A program made the position numbers and the translations under genes. The notes under the pieces were generated by a model that worked only from the letters and a program-made list of their open reading frames with translations, was not told the DNA's origin and did no database searches. Source: Escherichia phage BEK2. Taken from it: a DNA stretch of 46,880 nucleotides. The stretch is from the sequence record MN158206.1; one strand, 5' to 3'. Below, piece after piece: positions 576 to 30,126 of this stretch. The number at the start of each line of letters is the position of its first letter. The first letter of the stretch is position 1.

Positions 576-1088
576 ATGAATTGGCATGATTATTTTGAAT
601 ACAAAGATGGGAAGATTTACTGGAAAGATTACGATAGCGAGAGGCTTGGAAGGAGAAGGATACAGCGAAGATTCATAGGGAAAGAGGTTGGCGGCATTGA
701 TAAAAGCCTAGGGTATGTTAGGGTAAACATGCCTGGTAAAAAATATTGGGTTCATAGAATAATCTGGGAGATGCATAACGGAGTAATACCAGAAGGTATG
801 CAAATTGACCGTATAAATCATGTTAGAAATGTTAATAGGATAGAAAACCTTAGGTTAGTTACAATTCAGGAAAATAGAAAGAATCAGTCAATAAATTCGA
901 GGAATAAGACCGGGGTTACCGGAGTCTGCATAGTATCTAGGACTGGCAAATATGCAGCTCAAATAAAAAAGGATGGAGAGAATATTCACTTGGGATTCTT
1001 TGATAATATTCACGACGCGTCGATTGTCAGGGCGAGGGCTGAATTTATTCTTGGGTATCATAAAAACCACGGGAGGAAAGATGAGTGA
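576..1088 (+). CDS. HNH homing endonuclease with AP2-like DNA-binding domain
   Basis: HNH motif 'YWVHRIIWEMHNG...IDRINHVRNVNRIENLRLVTIQEN' followed by AP2-like 'TGVTGVCIVSRTGKYAAQIKKDG'; 3' end overlaps terL start by 8 nt. Confidence 0.8.
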   Translation: MNWHDYFEYKDGKIYWKDYDSERLGRRRIQRRFIGKEVGGIDKSLGYVRVNMPGKKYWVHRIIWEMHNGVIPEGMQIDRINHVRNVNRIENLRLVTIQENRKNQSINSRNKTGVTGVCIVSRTGKYAAQIKKDGENIHLGFFDNIHDASIVRARAEFILGYHKNHGRKDE

Positions 1089-8963: not shown

Positions 8964-9405
8964 TTTTATACCGAAGGCTAATGGCGGGGTTATTGAATTT
9001 AGTCGCTCCATTTCTGAATGGATAGATAAGGTTGAATCTGGAGTTGATGGGGTTGTTGCAGGAACCATTATCAAGACAGCTAATGGCCTGGTAGATCAGT
9101 CACCAGTTGACACTGGTAGATTTAAAGCCAACTGGCAAATAACAGCAAACTCCCCGGCTCAGCAGTCAGTAATTGACTATGATAAACTTGGAACAGAGAC
9201 CAAAAGAGCACTCGCAAGACAGGCAAGGGCGGTAGCCAGAGCAAAGGGAACAAAGGTCATTTACATAACAAGCAGGCTTGATTACTCAATTCACCTTGAA
9301 TATGGCGGCTCGGGTCAGGCGCCAAACGGCATTATTAGGATTGTTCAGATGCGGCTTGGTCGATACTTCCAGGAAGCAGTAGAGGAGGCTAAACGTGCAC
9401 TATGA
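8956..9405 (+). CDS. neck/tail completion protein (HK97 gp10-like)
   Basis: ATG 8956 'MASFIPKANGG...' (track ORF 8776 extends into previous gene); positional. Confidence 0.45.
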   Translation: MASFIPKANGGVIEFSRSISEWIDKVESGVDGVVAGTIIKTANGLVDQSPVDTGRFKANWQITANSPAQQSVIDYDKLGTETKRALARQARAVARAKGTKVIYITSRLDYSIHLEYGGSGQAPNGIIRIVQMRLGRYFQEAVEEAKRAL

Positions 9406-20000: not shown

Positions 20001-20485
20001 CCACATCAACTGGCGTACAGTACGGAATTAGTTTGGGCCTTAAATACAATGGGCAGACTTATTCATCGGGTATGAGCATGGAACTTGTTGGCACTGGTGA
20101 CAATGTTCGCAGTCAATTCATTTTTGACGCAAACAGATTCGCGATCAGTAATGGCATTGGTTCTGGTTCCGGTCAGTGGCAACTCCCCTTCGTTGTCGAG
20201 AATGGAAACGTGATAATCCAGAGCGCAGTAATCGCCGATGGCTCAATCAGTAACGCTAAGATTGGTAACTTTATTCAGTCTAGTAATTACGTGGCTGGCT
20301 CAAATGGTTGGAGGATATCAAAGGATGGAGCAAGTGAATTCAATAATGTGGTTGTTAGGGGCGCCCTATACGCATCCGAAGGTAACTTTGCTTTTAACGG
20401 AACAAACAATACGGTACAGATTAACGGGAACGGAATCACTGTTAACTTACCTGGAGGAGGAAGAGTTGTGGTAGGTACGTTCTAA
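17099..20485 (+). CDS. central tail fiber / host specificity protein (lambda J-like)
   Basis: strong similarity in order and motifs to lambda J N-terminal 2/3 (e.g. 'LIQVPTNYDPESRTYSGTWNGIFKMAWSNNPAWVLYDLV', 'DKWGLYEAAQFCDQMVPDGKGGMEPRY'); start 17060-17099 uncertain. Confidence 0.9.
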   Translation: MAEDIKIYGAKGGSQKPHQPVEQEDNLISLNKVKVLLAVADGEVDSNFSMKDLYLADVPVQNQDGSYNYEGVRAEFRAGTQYQDYIAGLDGANSEIQASREIKNDTPYIIAVNNTQLSAIRVKLYWPRLVKQESNGDLNGTTCEYAIDLSVNGGAYQEYTRGVANGKTTTGYDRSIRVNLPAEFDSALVRIRKITTDSTSSTLVNGMQITTYQEVIDAKFRYPLTALVYVEFGSDLFPNGIPTISIKKRWKLIQVPTNYDPESRTYSGTWNGIFKMAWSNNPAWVLYDLVTNRRYGLDQRELGVEIDKWGLYEAAQFCDQMVPDGKGGMEPRYLCDMVVQNKVEAYTLIRDICSIFRGLTFYDGEKIGIVVDKPRNPSYIFTNDNVVNGLFSRTFASDKSLYTTANVQFDDVENNYQQDIEPVFELEATRRFGFNPVDLTAIGCTRRSEANRRGRWLLKTNLRSETISFTTGLEGMIPMIGEVIAVNDAAWSSNYQLNLSGRIESVQGLQVFTPFKVDAAPGDRILLNKPDGNPEARTIASISEDGRTINLNTAFSFVAQPDTVFAIDKDNLALQQYVVTGIQKADTDGKDSFQYTITAVEYDPNKYDEIDYGVNIADRPTSIVEPDRLSPPENLTVSSYSKVVQGLSVETMVIGWDKAPYAKTYNVQWRKENGNWINVPRTASTEVDIEGIYAGIYDVRVRSVSDTENVSAWSDIVTVSLTGKIGRPSAPTVITASTDEVFGIRVKWGFPEGSGDTAYTELQQVPDNGDGTYNPDSASLLTLVPYPQYEYWHTPIQPGKVIWYRARLIDRIGNTSDWSYFARGMSTDDASIINDYIKVDIEGSEGFKYLEQNAIQKNQDIQNQAEAIIENALANDGDVRRMTKENGKRKAEYVQAVNLIADETQARVEALTQLKAQIDDEIVGQITTIETALATETEARATADTALTARIGDNEAAINQKLDAFSNATSTGVQYGISLGLKYNGQTYSSGMSMELVGTGDNVRSQFIFDANRFAISNGIGSGSGQWQLPFVVENGNVIIQSAVIADGSISNAKIGNFIQSSNYVAGSNGWRISKDGASEFNNVVVRGALYASEGNFAFNGTNNTVQINGNGITVNLPGGGRVVVGTF

Positions 20486-21714: not shown

Positions 21715-21757
21715 ATAGTATCGCATCCTTGCGATCAGTGTTTAGCAATTAGTGCTA
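21715..21757 (-). promoter_or_regulatory. composite early-type promoter (box + -10 TACTAT)
   Basis: box 21743-21757 (minus sense TAGCACTAATTGCTA), -10 at 21715-21720, leader 'ctccATCGAAACGAAAT'. Confidence 0.55.
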
Positions 21758-22431
21758 TTCGCCAAAAATACAGCTCTTGCAAATCCACGAGGTGTAAGAC
21801 TGCGAATTACCTTTGTTTTCTTGCTCTTCCCGCCTAGCTTCTTGTGCTGGTCTGAGTATCCATCATTAACGTCAACTGGTGAGGCTTGAGGCCATTTAAA
21901 CCCATTGCCAGACCAAATGCACGTCTTCTTAGGATATGCGTCTCTTGGCTTTATTAGGTCGCTAAAAAACGGGTGTAAATCATCTTCCGGCAAATAGCCT
22001 CCGTATTCGTAAGGGTGAAACGTGTTATCAGGTTTACTCCAGAGCGATGACAGCACGCTGACTGGGTTCTCAATCATGTATGGAACTCCGTATTTTTCAG
22101 CCAGTTTAAAAGCAACCTTGCAAGTCTCTGCCGCCTCAATTTGGAAGTTTTGGTTGGCTAGGCGCTTACGCTCAAAGTGTGCTGCCCCGCTCACGGCTAA
22201 ATCCGTACAGGGCGGGAATGCCATGATAAAATCAGGCTTCACATCAAAATCAAAACTGGAATCTATCCAGGCATTAACGTATGTAATGTTCTCATGCTCA
22301 ACCTTTGCATTTAAGTCACTGTAGCTCCCGTGGTCGGAATCATCAAAGTTGAAGCAGCAGCATGTGTGGCCAGCTTCAGCCCAATCATTTACAGCCAAAC
22401 CAGAACCATCAAATAAAGACCAGATAACCAT
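21742..22431 (-). CDS. DNA methyltransferase (FxGxG / PPC / ENP motifs)
   Basis: 'LFDGSGLA', '[12 protein letters not shown]', 'MIENPV'; class (C5 vs N6) uncertain; C-terminus 'NSTNC' encoded by TAGCAC box. Confidence 0.55.
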
Positions 22432-26379: not shown

Positions 26380-27588
26380 TTAAACACCAGTCAGTCTAGA
26401 TAACTCCCTACGTAGAAGCGCGCACTCTAGAGCGAGGCACTCCTCCATTCGAACCATCCATATTTCTCCAGCATCCTTACTTTCATCGGCATCCCATTTT
26501 TCGTGAATAAGTATTCCGTAATCACATGCGTCCAGACCTGCTTTAAGGAACTTGTCTCTGATGTCTTGAGCAATTACACCAATGTGTAGACGAGCTTCAT
26601 TGTCTCCCTTCTCAGAAACTGCCCTCTTCATTTTCCACTGCTTGTAATTTACTGTACTCCAGGCATCAAGAACTTCGTCAGGAATATCACCTATAAAAAC
26701 CTTGTGGTTTTCATCGGAAACAACTGTAGGTGCGTTCTGAAAATACGCATTGTTATATGTCAGTGATGCATATCCAATGTTATGCGTCGCGGTAACGTCA
26801 GGTGCAAGTGTTCTTGTTCTAAGTATTCCCGACACATTACCTCCTCCGAAGTTTACAGCAGCAGTAGTATTTAGCTCTGCACCACTTACGAACTCCTGAA
26901 TCCAGGGGCCTACCGAAGATGAGGATATTTGTCGACGCCACCCCGTCTGCGATGCGCCATTAGTTCGCAATGTTTGTATGGTGTCGTTATTACCTATAAG
27001 GTACTCAACATCCATAATTGATGCACCAGTGCCTCTAGTTGGTACATCTGTGAACACAGAGAATACGGAGCCTGGAATGTAATATCGACCTGGTGTTTTT
27101 ATGTTAGACAGAAGGTTTCCGTTTGATGATGCACTAGAAGCCGTCATGAACTCGATCAATCCAAACTGAAAAACTTTATGCCAACCAGAATCCACGTAAT
27201 TAGCAGCGGCAGATCTATTTATGTGACGTGACCAAAGACCGTTTTCGTTCTGGTAAAAAAAAGAAATCTTATTGTTAGCCTCAAGTGAAGCGTAAACAGT
27301 TAGACGACCAGAAAGTCGTGCGCCGTTGGTTAGAGAAGGCATATCAAATTCTGTGTTTACACTCTGTGCAATCTCCGTCATAAATATGGCGTTATTTGGC
27401 ATTCTGGTAGCAATCAGAGACACAGTCGCTTCATCTGCGGTAATACCTAGTTCAGCAAGTTTAGTCAGAGTCATTACACCGGACTGGTCGTTGAGTCTAC
27501 CTATCTGAGACTCTATCATCATTAAGGCTTCGTCGAGGGAGTCTTTATTGGCAGTAAGAATGTTGGCATCGAGGGTTAATTTTTCCAT
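26380..27588 (-). CDS. tail fiber protein, possible C-terminal intramolecular chaperone domain
   Basis: Gly/Ser/Thr/Asn-rich body; C-terminus 'ARLHIGVIAQDIRDKFLKAGLD...YGILIHEKW' resembles auto-chaperone domains; low certainty. Confidence 0.45.
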   Translation of the reverse strand: MEKLTLDANILTANKDSLDEALMMIESQIGRLNDQSGVMTLTKLAELGITADEATVSLIATRMPNNAIFMTEIAQSVNTEFDMPSLTNGARLSGRLTVYASLEANNKISFFYQNENGLWSRHINRSAAANYVDSGWHKVFQFGLIEFMTASSASSNGNLLSNIKTPGRYYIPGSVFSVFTDVPTRGTGASIMDVEYLIGNNDTIQTLRTNGASQTGWRRQISSSSVGPWIQEFVSGAELNTTAAVNFGGGNVSGILRTRTLAPDVTATHNIGYASLTYNNAYFQNAPTVVSDENHKVFIGDIPDEVLDAWSTVNYKQWKMKRAVSEKGDNEARLHIGVIAQDIRDKFLKAGLDACDYGILIHEKWDADESKDAGEIWMVRMEECLALECALLRRELSRLTGV

Positions 27589-27598
27589 TTTAATATCC

Positions 27599-29116
27599 TT
27601 AAATTGTGAGGTCTACGTATAGTGGTTTGTGGTCACCTATAGCGAGAGGTGTATCTACAGAGCCATATTCACCTTGTTCTGAAAAACCTTTGTGGAATAT
27701 GCGATCAAGATACCATGTACCGCCGTTATTGCTGGTATTAATCTCCCCATTCCGGTTAACCATTGTGAAACCTGCGTCTATGAATGGTTGAAAATCAGAA
27801 TCGTTGTTGGTGTTCCAGTCACCCATCAATACGACATGGCTGTGTGTTTCTGCTGCAGCCATGCTTGCTAACTCGGTTATCATGGCACTAATGCGTTCCT
27901 GTGATAGCGCTAGATGAGTATTATAAACTACAACCGTTGTGCCGTTAACTTTCATCTCAGCTCTTACATAACTCCTGTATTCTGTGTCGCCTACTGTTGG
28001 TTGAGATAAGAAACGGGATCCGGTGACATTGGTTAGCGGTCGAGTTGAAGCTACCATGTTCCCGTAGTTTCTACCGAAGCTGAACCACTCTGAAGTTGAC
28101 TGGAAACCCGATCCGTAAGGGTAAAGCGCTAATTCGGATGCTCGCAAGTTGGGTACAGTATAGCTTTCCTGGCCGCCAACAAAATCCGCACCTATCCGTA
28201 GCCACCAAGTATTAATGTCAACGATTCGCTGCCTGTTAGCGTAGTCACCACCGAAATATCCACTTATACTGCCGGCTCCCCAGTTGTTCCAAGTGACGAA
28301 ACGAACCTTGTTAGAAGTAATTGCGTCTTCGCGCTCTCGAATCATCTGGCGTACGTTATCAGTTGAAGTTGCGACGATCTGTTCCCTAAGGGTAGCATCT
28401 GTTAGGCCAATCCATGCTGTCGGGCCTATTCCGCCAGTCGAATCCACGGTTGAGTTTGCTGGAACAACCTTAGGAAGTTCACCTCCCCACACGTAAGATG
28501 CTGCATTGCCATCTTTAATATCTATTATTTGCTGTGTTTTTGATTCAATTGTAACGCCATCCTGAAAGCTACCAATTAAGGCACCAGAAACAGAAGCGGC
28601 ACTTGCTGCGGCCTGTTGCGCAGATGTGGAAGCTGATGATGCGCTCAATTCGGATGATTGCTTATCCTGTGATACCTGATAAGCATCACTTGATACTTGA
28701 GCGCCAATGGTGACAATTTCTCCATATTGTGTGTTAATTTGGTTAACATCATTTGAAAATTTATCCTGATCAAAATCCTTAAAAACATCAACAGCTGTTG
28801 CAACTTCCGTTTCACGTGACTGGTAGTAACGAAGAGTTTCTGCAACATCCTGAGCCAAACCTTGAACGGTAATCCCATCGTGCGCAAGGATTGCGTAACC
28901 AGTTCCAGCAGGAACGGTTTCAGAGTTGGGGTTGTAAACATTAATCTGCGTATCGCTGATAATTTCTGAGATGGTGTAAATCTGTACCGGCTCTGTTTTA
29001 AATACAATGGTTGCACCAACTCTGATCAGTGTAAGTGGTGCCTTCCATGTTGTACCTACGCCAATAACCTCGCCATTTGCGGCCAGCGAAGCTGTTCCTA
29101 AGTCATAAATTGCCAT
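27599..29116 (-). CDS. tail fiber protein with C-terminal endonuclease/exonuclease/phosphatase (EEP) domain
   Basis: ATG 29116 with GGAGA RBS; Ser/Ala-rich linker; EEP motifs 'FVTWNNWG', 'NTHLA', 'VVLMGDWNTN', 'GDHKPLYVDL'. Confidence 0.7.
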   Translation of the reverse strand: MAIYDLGTASLAANGEVIGVGTTWKAPLTLIRVGATIVFKTEPVQIYTISEIISDTQINVYNPNSETVPAGTGYAILAHDGITVQGLAQDVAETLRYYQSRETEVATAVDVFKDFDQDKFSNDVNQINTQYGEIVTIGAQVSSDAYQVSQDKQSSELSASSASTSAQQAAASAASVSGALIGSFQDGVTIESKTQQIIDIKDGNAASYVWGGELPKVVPANSTVDSTGGIGPTAWIGLTDATLREQIVATSTDNVRQMIREREDAITSNKVRFVTWNNWGAGSISGYFGGDYANRQRIVDINTWWLRIGADFVGGQESYTVPNLRASELALYPYGSGFQSTSEWFSFGRNYGNMVASTRPLTNVTGSRFLSQPTVGDTEYRSYVRAEMKVNGTTVVVYNTHLALSQERISAMITELASMAAAETHSHVVLMGDWNTNNDSDFQPFIDAGFTMVNRNGEINTSNNGGTWYLDRIFHKGFSEQGEYGSVDTPLAIGDHKPLYVDLTI

Positions 29117-29140
29117 CGTGTAAAGTCTCCTTTTGTAAAA

Positions 29141-29155
29141 TAGCACGAATTGCTA
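29141..29155 (+). promoter_or_regulatory. orphan TAGCACGAATTGCTA box (no phased -10 for adjacent gene)
   Basis: perfect box between primase terminator and tail-fiber start codon, antisense to both. Confidence 0.4.
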
Positions 29156-29180: not shown

Positions 29181-29202
29181 ATAAAAAACCTCCCGAAGGA
29201 GG
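29181..29202 (-). terminator. intrinsic terminator after primase gene
   Basis: minus sense cctcc-ttcg-ggagg + T6. Confidence 0.65.
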
Positions 29203-30126
29203 TTAGCTATTCAATAAGTCACTTGCCTTATATATCTTCTTCCTGATGCCGCTCTTGAATGAGTATTCATCATTTGGTATTACCACGTCAATACACCTGT
29301 CATCCGCAACGCAAAGCAACTCTCTGTCAAGTTTGCACGCCACTCTCAGCTTTTGGTTTCTAAGCGCGTAAGCAACCATTTCCATGTTGTAACTGGAGTA
29401 GCAAACAAGCACACAGCGGTTGCCAGTAGCAATGTGAACACGATAGCCGTCAATGAGATTATCGACCAGATAAGCGAACTCACCATCCTTAAGGGAACCA
29501 ATAACAGCCACAGACTGGCGAGTGTAATCTTTTGCGGCATAACTAACATCTCCTTCTTCATTGATAAACATTACATTGCACATTTCTTCTGATATACCAT
29601 CACCATAAGCCATGAAGCAAGGTATTGCATGGATTAATTCACCTGATTTTGCTCTACCAACATCAAAGCCAAACTCGCTATAGATTCCCTCGTATATACT
29701 GAGTGGGGTTGATTCTACTCTTTCCGTCCTTCCCATTATCTCTAAGCATCTTTCGTGGTCAATTTGAGCGCCCATTTTGTAGAGCTGGGTTCTTGATGCT
29801 TGCTTGTTTGCCTTGTTGACAACCTCAACCGGGATAAGGTTTAGCCACTCACCGAGAACGTCGATACACTCACTGAATGACTCGCCTCGCAGCTTCTGGA
29901 CCCAGAGAATTCCATCCCCTGAGCCGCACTGGTTGCAGATAATGCCACCATCACCATCTTCGCTAACCTTGTTTGTCCATCTCGCGCGATCGTTTCCACC
30001 GCAATAGATGCATGGCTTGTGCTTCTTGGTCTGGAAAAACTTAGGATCTGCGCCGCAGATGTTTATAAGCGCCTTATCCCACAGTCCGCGCATTCTTGGT
30101 AGAACCTCTTTCTTATCGTAGTGCAT
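29203..30126 (-). CDS. DNA primase (zinc-ribbon + catalytic domain)
   Basis: 'PCIYCGGNDRARW...GGIICNQCGSGDGI' matches primase Zn-ribbon pattern. Confidence 0.65.
   Translation of the reverse strand: MHYDKKEVLPRMRGLWDKALINICGADPKFFQTKKHKPCIYCGGNDRARWTNKVSEDGDGGIICNQCGSGDGILWVQKLRGESFSECIDVLGEWLNLIPVEVVNKANKQASRTQLYKMGAQIDHERCLEIMGRTERVESTPLSIYEGIYSEFGFDVGRAKSGELIHAIPCFMAYGDGISEEMCNVMFINEEGDVSYAAKDYTRQSVAVIGSLKDGEFAYLVDNLIDGYRVHIATGNRCVLVCYSSYNMEMVAYALRNQKLRVACKLDRELLCVADDRCIDVVIPNDEYSFKSGIRKKIYKASDLLNS

Follow-up and report, generated by a model that had tools for sequence, protein, structure and literature searches.

We found that the minus-strand gene at positions 26380-27588 of the window (the whole 46,880-nt stretch of DNA analysed here) probably codes for subunit two of a receptor-recognition cassette, a mobile pair of genes in the lateral-fibre locus, the two products of which form one two-component fibre. 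The first gene would provide the virion-anchored fibre, composed of a T1-type N-terminal anchor, a Tail_spike_N module and an EEP phosphoesterase, and the second an anchor-less protein, hereafter called the partner, with knob/tower-type domains in residues 1-240 and a stalk plus Peptidase_S74 domain in residues 241-402. The observations behind this reading are the domain identities, the conservation of a catalytic dyad, the linkage of the two genes seen from either side, their co-divergence, the swapping of virion anchors, which affects the EEP protein alone, and the occurrence of short partner forms that have no S74 domain. A mobile EEP-plus-knob cassette with an optional S74 domain appears not to have been described before and to be a variant of the branched or two-component receptor-binding theme; in the searchable literature we found no description of EEP domains on phage fibres or of the pairing of an EEP protein with such a partner.

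The window comprises essentially the whole genome and is 100% identical over the region to the record of Escherichia phage BEK3 (MN158207.1; Drexlerviridae, Braunvirinae; host E. coli K514). The reading frame is genuine: it begins with ATG and encodes 402 aa. Its deposited counterpart in BEK3, QGH76807.1, is labelled 'hypothetical protein', and we identified 28 full-length homologues of 400-456 aa with 38-92% identity. The head and tail operon runs on the plus strand up to a gpJ-like gene with its 3' end at 20485, and the partner gene lies on the minus strand between recombination/ssDNA-binding genes and the primase. The earlier note had placed the fibre genes away from the main tail operon, which is correct and normal for T1-like phages. 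In the BASEL study the same slot is the hypervariable lateral-tail-fibre locus of Drexlerviridae, in which conservation does not extend beyond the extreme 5' terminus of the first fibre gene and the lateral fibres can consist of one or several proteins (PMC8594841). The features of the locus are collected in Table 1. Two further genes of the window are recorded here in passing: the BEK3 record has an annotated homing endonuclease gene between those of the small and large terminase subunits (window 576-1088, plus strand), and a 229-aa 'hypothetical protein' (window 21742-22431, minus strand) contains an 11-letter stretch that seems to resemble motif IV of C5-cytosine DNA methyltransferases. A literature search for BEK3 returned no paper.

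Table 1. Features of the EEP-partner locus, in positions of the window; residue numbers of the EEP protein follow the 515-codon numbering, from which 10 is subtracted for the deposited protein.
Feature	Residues	Position	Strand	Basis
Complete gene for the 402-aa partner protein, one of the long forms in the EEP-fibre partner family		26380..27588	-	ORF, GenBank, homologues
Conserved N-terminal segment, M-x-K-L-T-I-D-A-N-x-L ... I-x-R-L	1-35	27484..27588	-	alignments, AF2
Beta-rich globular core; putative knob/tower-type receptor-binding region	36-240	26869..27483	-	AF2
Tower-repeat homology unit	137-233	26890..27180	-	profile vs PDB
Stalk, long forms only	241-290	26719..26868	-	absent from short forms; low pLDDT
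Peptidase_S74 intramolecular chaperone, predicted released fragment of ~13 kDa	291-402	26383..26718	-	
Ser291 codon, predicted scissile/nucleophilic serine; predicted cut V290/S291	291	26716..26718	-	alignment
Lys296 codon, predicted general base of Ser-Lys dyad (S-x4-K)	296	26701..26703	-	family alignment
Gene junction TAA-GGATATTAAA-ATG		27589..27601	-	sequence read
Upstream EEP gene, lateral fibre protein		27599..29146	-	ORF; GenBank start ATG 29116
Drexlerviridae N-terminal anchor of EEP protein		5' end of EEP gene	-	DNA conservation
Tail_spike_N module (PF18668) of EEP protein	192-248	28403-28573	-	Pfam
EEP phosphoesterase domain (Exo_endo_phos)	~265-515	27602-28354	-	Pfam, PHROG

The 5' end of the upstream EEP gene is 80-89% identical to many T1-like phages and its remainder is unique. 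Its longest reading frame begins with a GTG at 29146, while GenBank and the PHROG alignments point to the downstream ATG (MAIYDLG...). Membership of the EEP superfamily is seen in profile, in fold and in the conserved catalytic set Asn/Glu/Tyr/His/Asp-Asn/Asp/Asp-His, and the phosphoesterase domain is predicted to be catalytically intact. NCBIfam holds no family for the partner and gave only a sub-threshold match for the EEP protein. A Shine-Dalgarno sequence, AAGGA (27596-27600), overlaps the EEP stop codon and is followed after 7 nt by the partner ATG, and a terminator scan found no terminator between the two genes. Promoter and terminator scans were otherwise uninformative, with counts at shuffle level. 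One terminator-like hairpin, AACCTCC-TTCG-GGAGGTT followed by a T-run (29187-29204, minus strand), lies between the primase stop, which it closely follows, and the EEP gene, so that the fibre cassette may have its own promoter; the promoter scan for the cassette gave background level. We also considered that the EEP protein and the partner might be a single gene split by a frameshift. This was ruled out, since the EEP domain runs to its usual C-terminus (...GDHKPLYVDLTI), the alignment of the partner begins at its own Met in every homologue, and the two reading frames are not the same.

The C-terminus of the partner had been described in the earlier note as resembling self-cleaved intramolecular chaperone domains (the motifs quoted there correspond to residues 332-353 and 357-365), and a Peptidase_S74 profile search had been proposed. 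Run here, this search bears the description out: Pfam Peptidase_S74 (PF13884) matches residues 291-347 with 43.8 bits (E 3.1e-11) against a gathering threshold of 22 bits, and a Ser-Lys dyad stands in register with that of characterised members. Six PHROG families of tail fibres and spikes match the C-terminal 140 residues (E 1e-23 to 4e-51). Phmmer searches against the PDB recovered 9vvr (2.9e-22), AS12 gp42 (6eu4, 9.5e-22), the released GA-1 gp12 chaperone (3gud, 1.8e-21) and the endoNF chaperone (3gw6, 8e-11), with the matches beginning at query residues 257-260, and the predicted fold likewise matches 3gud and 3gw6. The S74 identification permits a proper annotation of a gene that was deposited as a hypothetical protein. 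As a separate observation, QGH76807.1 is annotated in its record with the words 'binds to the polymannose O-antigen accelerating adsorption of T5 phage', which repeats the T5 ltf annotation verbatim and was evidently transferred via the common S74 domain; it is misleading, since the receptor-binding part of the partner is unrelated to pb1.

In the alignment with 3gud, S291 corresponds to residue 1 of the released GA-1 gp12 chaperone, and the partner's SDENHK pairs with SDERHK. In a direct alignment with T5 pb1, V290/S291...K296 falls on T1263/S1264...K1269. In pb1, Ser1264 is the scissile serine and Lys1269 the activating lysine, as deduced from the structure, and cleavage needs the assembled trimer and unmasks a binding surface (PMC4690869). 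Across the 28 full-length homologues K296 is invariant and S291 is a Ser in all except one, which has Cys. The accessory residues of T5 were not recovered: Arg1250 of pb1, which is contributed by the adjacent chain, and Asp1239, which precedes the serine, align with T277 and T266 of BEK3. Both are kept in GA-1 and variable within the partner family, of which some members have an Arg two positions after the T277 equivalent, where BEK3 has N279. Efficient autocleavage is therefore not guaranteed, and judged from these alignments a cut at V290/S291 by the S291/K296 pair is likely but not certain. The two Thr, the Cys-bearing homologue and the existence of short forms that need no S74 domain could also mean that the domain is a chaperone only, or a decayed remnant, and that the uncleaved, full-length 44-kDa protein is the form present in the virion. 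We regard this as unlikely, as an invariant K296 and a serine retained in 27/28 proteins at 38-92% identity argue for selection on catalysis and cleavage does take place in GA-1 gp12 and endoNF, the nearest relatives with a solved structure.

The N-terminal part of the partner is of a different kind. The conserved segment of residues 1-35, for which AF2 predicts a helix at residues 18-34, is a candidate docking or trimerisation segment. The core that follows is common to short and long forms and is modelled mostly with pLDDT values of 75-90, its confident beta-rich part spanning residues 40-240. Its best-defined part is a tower unit in residues 137-233 with the motif LSN-x-K-x-PG-x-YY ... FTD-x-P. 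In a profile search against the PDB it aligned with NF5 gp17 445-524 and 539-618 (E 7e-13) and P68 gp17 552-636 (6e-7), and also with the phi812 RBP (receptor-binding protein) 62-142 and phi11 Gp45 565-639; the tower boundaries in the staphylococcal RBPs were taken from published work (PMC4901313). Homology to the phi11 Gp45-type tower repeat was thus found in sequence as well as in fold. Foldseek matches to phi11 and P68 had at first sight allowed an assignment to the five-bladed propeller platform, which was ruled out by the profile-to-PDB alignment to the C-terminal tower repeats. Residues 40-136 may constitute a second tower/knob unit; an internal duplication within the knob region had no support from sequence. 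Residues ~137-233, and probably 40-233, resemble the staphylococcal RBPs phi11 Gp45, 80alpha gp61, P68 gp17 and NF5 gp17 in profile and fold, and the knob domains of R-type pyocin fibres are similar to the same stretch. In contrast to the staphylococcal proteins, that of BEK3 lacks a coiled-coil stem as well as a platform of the five-bladed propeller type, and the hosts here are Gram-negative. In four related proteins of 721-940 aa (P0075, P0087, P0088 and P0091) we noted 3-5 copies of a unit matching BEK3 residues ~153-230, which suggests that the tower/knob unit also occurs in long tandem arrays.

The AF2 monomer model of the 402-aa protein has a mean pLDDT of 69.5, which falls below 50 for residues 241-299. 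Residues 241-290 are expected to be a trimeric beta-helix stalk that folds only as a trimer. This stalk travels with the S74 domain: the long forms of the family, BEK3 included, add both, whereas short forms of 214-277 aa have residues ~1-235 in common with them and then continue into an unrelated tail of ~45 residues without S74. When 1.84 billion representatives were searched exhaustively by phmmer with residues 1-235 as query, only 30 clusters came up, about half of them short and half long, plus a few multi-repeat proteins; the partner family is rare. Two short forms, gp17.01 of phages CR8 and CR44b, carry the GenBank notes 'matches in mass spectrometry analysis; structural' and no database hits, and gp17.01 is called a 'putative tailspike' in the genome announcement (PMC4038870). 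Together with PHROG 22156 they are homologous to the partner over residues ~1-235 (hmmsearch E ~1e-25), they directly follow an EEP-tipped gp17 fibre gene and, according to the mass spectrometry notes, they are virion-associated; they differ in having 271-273 aa, another tail of ~45 residues and neither stalk nor S74. As the short forms do without S74, the chaperone is not intrinsic to the function of the partner.

The partner family was found directly 3' of an EEP fibre gene in every context, about 20/20, and the reverse search from the EEP domain agrees. Seen from the partner side, all 11 long-form cassettes (BEK3, W22, L003, L004, L005/6, L007, L016, L017, L018, L019/20 and L009/10) have an EEP gene at a distance of 9-12 nt upstream. 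Besides BEK3, the long-form contexts are the phi92-like myovirus W22, three SU10-like podovirus contigs, a contig with a T7-type fibre N-terminal domain, gpJ-type Citrobacter koseri prophages with IMG/VR relatives, a podovirus-like contig with a T7-type terminase and two multi-tailspike contigs. In short-form cassettes the EEP stop and partner start range from a 4-nt overlap to a 1-nt gap. Starting from the EEP side, tblastn with the BEK3 EEP domain hit 17 phage records only, and in all of them the next gene abuts or overlaps and matches a profile of the partner's first 245 residues (E 3e-26 to 3.5e-6). Cassettes reached in this way include Citrobacter phages CR44b, CR8 and CrRp3, Cronobacter phage vB_CtuP_B1, Proteus phage PM116, Pseudomonas phage PA28 and the Salmonella kutterviruses Se-H/I/J/N. 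A further locus (L029) is likewise paired, with an EEP protein (P0097) that has a P22-type head-binding domain and, 11 nt on, a 445-aa S74 protein. In the collection of loci, the N-domain alignment led to one IMG/VR locus and the full alignment to two further full-length and five S74-only loci; a genome scan for further loci found nothing. The five S74-only loci, which contain other S74 proteins, served as control and have neither an EEP gene nor a partner N-domain, so that the linkage belongs to the N-terminal part of the partner and not to S74 proteins generally.

Some of these cassettes have peculiarities of their own. In W22 (PV159336.1, gene W22000141, L002:9001-10308) the GenBank CDS starts at L002:9073, while the family alignment points to an ATG at 9001, preceded by GGGGAAAGGA and located 12 nt after the EEP stop; the deposited W22 protein is probably N-terminally short by 24 residues. 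In the multi-tailspike kutterviruses Se-H/I/J/N a short-form cassette is found amid the genes for tailspikes, as in Se-J gp098/gp099 (L021:3719-5798), where the EEP protein has a typical kuttervirus tailspike N-terminus (MNPQFAQPKGST...). Immediately behind the cassette, and in opposite orientation to it, we noted an Acyl_transf_3 gene in a 43-kb phage contig (L004:9301-10248, minus strand) and in Citrobacter koseri prophages (L005/L006:9330-10325, minus strand). It may be a receptor-modifying (O-acetylation) conversion gene, and its position next to the cassette in these two temperate or unclassified contexts is a weak hint of a polysaccharide receptor.

Tight coupling of an enzyme gene to a downstream partner resembles nuclease-immunity pairs, and the partner could in principle be an inhibitor or immunity protein that masks a potentially toxic EEP phosphoesterase in the producing cell. 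We consider this hardly credible: the partner shares homology with the tower/knob domains of fibres, has a fibre-type chaperone at the end of its long form, is a virion protein in CR8 and CR44b and shows no sign of an immunity fold. The order of a fibre gene followed by a coupled gene is also the classic order of Tfa systems. According to such a model the partner, as an analogue of T2 gp38 or Mu/lambda Tfa, would be an assembly factor or tip adhesin that folds or stabilises the EEP fibre and either stays on the tip or is absent from particles. The strict linkage and the co-divergence described below fit this, as does the observation that the fibre protein LtfA of phage DT57C is unstable without LtfB. 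However, no similarity to Tfa/Caudo_TAP was detected in Pfam, NCBIfam or PHROGs, the partner possesses RBP-type domains and an intramolecular chaperone known only from structural trimeric fibres and spikes, and the short form was detected in CR8 and CR44b virions, which leaves a Tfa-like role improbable. A version in which the partner persists as a tip adhesin is really the same as the two-component fibre that we favour.

The two proteins of the cassette co-diverge. When EEP domains and partner N-domains are each compared pair by pair, the two sets of identities correlate with a Pearson r of 0.92 (120 pairs, Mantel p ~2e-4), and among the long forms with r = 0.96. This is no proof of contact, as co-transferred adjacent genes diverge together even without binding. 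Among the EEP proteins of 17 cassettes the first 60 residues fall into nine unrelated anchor types, including T1-type, T7 gp17-type, K1-5-type, kuttervirus tailspike-type, SU10-type and P22 head-binding type, while the first 40 residues of the partner form one cluster in 15/17 cassettes. Thus of the two adjacent genes only the EEP gene carries a phage-specific virion anchor. All EEP proteins have nothing in common but the EEP domain and a short preceding helix. A Tail_spike_N-like module, the obvious candidate for docking, is present in just 6/17 EEP proteins, that of BEK3 included, and was for this reason dismissed as a universal docking platform; docking of the partner would need the EEP domain or the neck, for which we know of no precedent.

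These data also bear on the proposal in the earlier note that the phage has two distinct side fibres. The partner would then form its own trimer and attach directly to the tail beside the EEP fibre, giving two adhesins. Knob/tower domains and an S74 chaperone are hallmarks of trimeric fibres and spikes, the gene lies in the lateral-fibre locus and phages with multiple independent fibres exist, for example the phi92-like W22 cluster. Against this, one and the same family of partner N-termini occurs on siphovirus, podovirus and myovirus backbones and in prophages, next to EEP proteins with nine types of anchors, so that a direct contact would have to suit unrelated tails; among Drexlerviridae conservation of the EEP gene is confined to its 5' end, and the partner family was never seen without the EEP gene in the contexts examined. 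An independent second fibre is in our opinion as improbable as a Tfa-like protein, and two distinct side fibres are not the best reading. One composite or branched fibre is likelier, since the partner has no anchor and always stands behind the EEP gene, the genes co-diverge across a tight junction and the mature partner would, at ~290 residues as predicted from the cleavage site, be a knob and not a long fibre. No rival explains the anchor asymmetry and the RBP-type domains as well as the two-component fibre.

Such a fibre might be made as follows. The EEP and partner genes would be co-translated from one message. The C-terminal chaperone would set three partner chains in register and template the trimeric stalk, and once the trimer is correct, Ser291, activated by Lys296, would cut between V290 and S291 so that the 112-residue chaperone leaves. 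The mature trimer, with ~31 kDa per chain, would sit on the conserved neck/EEP part of the fibre, where the partner knob would bind and the EEP domain cleave a phosphoester of a surface glycan or lipid-linked receptor. From the sequences and models we infer trimerisation, autocleavage, docking on the EEP protein and the nature of receptor and substrate. A bolder version, which we put forward tentatively and consider rather doubtful, is that of an obligate heteromeric machine with the partner placed on the EEP domain itself, the EEP protein representing a new class of phosphodiester-cutting depolymerases and S74 being an optional add-on that is gained and lost. Candidate substrates for such a depolymerase are, for example, phosphate-containing O-antigen or capsule, ECA and LPS core decorations. 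The isolation host, K-12, is rough, and on it the fibre is probably dispensable.

The 402-aa protein thus represents one half of a rare, strictly linked and horizontally mobile EEP-plus-partner cassette that fits at least nine types of tail attachment and occurs in prophages as well as on backbones of siphovirus, podovirus and myovirus kind. It is a defined, portable two-gene unit for host-range engineering. The cassette points to predicted phosphoester cleavage on phage fibres, where glycosidases, lyases and deacetylases are the activities that have been studied well. Since nature provides this protein both with an intramolecular chaperone and without one, the two forms can also be compared to ask what such chaperones are needed for.

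Taken by itself the S74 domain is ordinary. Like the chaperones of K1F endosialidase, GA-1 gp12 and T5 pb1 it has a C-terminal place behind a stalk, matches PF13884 and shows the S-x4-K pattern in register, and the GA-1 domain is 43% identical to it. At the positions that align with the accessory Arg and Asp of T5 and GA-1 these residues are missing here, the domain sits on a small knob protein of 240 residues instead of a long fibre or a large enzymatic spike, and close relatives of the same protein exist without any S74 domain. The closest parallel to the cassette as a whole is LtfA/LtfB of the T5-like phage DT57C, which likewise consists of two adjacent fibre genes in a siphovirus lateral-fibre locus of which only the first product is anchored, the second being anchor-less and ending in pfam13884. 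In the branched fibre of DT57C, LtfB depends on LtfA and LtfA is unstable without LtfB (PMC4728585). We group G7C gp66/gp63.1 and the CBA120 tailspikes with DT57C as anchor-branch systems. Our cassette differs from these in several respects. The T4gp10-like/Tail_spike_N platform is missing in most cassettes, and we infer the branching from the genes. The proximal protein ends in an EEP enzyme and has no S74 domain of its own, and the two genes form a fixed cassette that moves among unrelated phages, not a platform for interchangeable branches.
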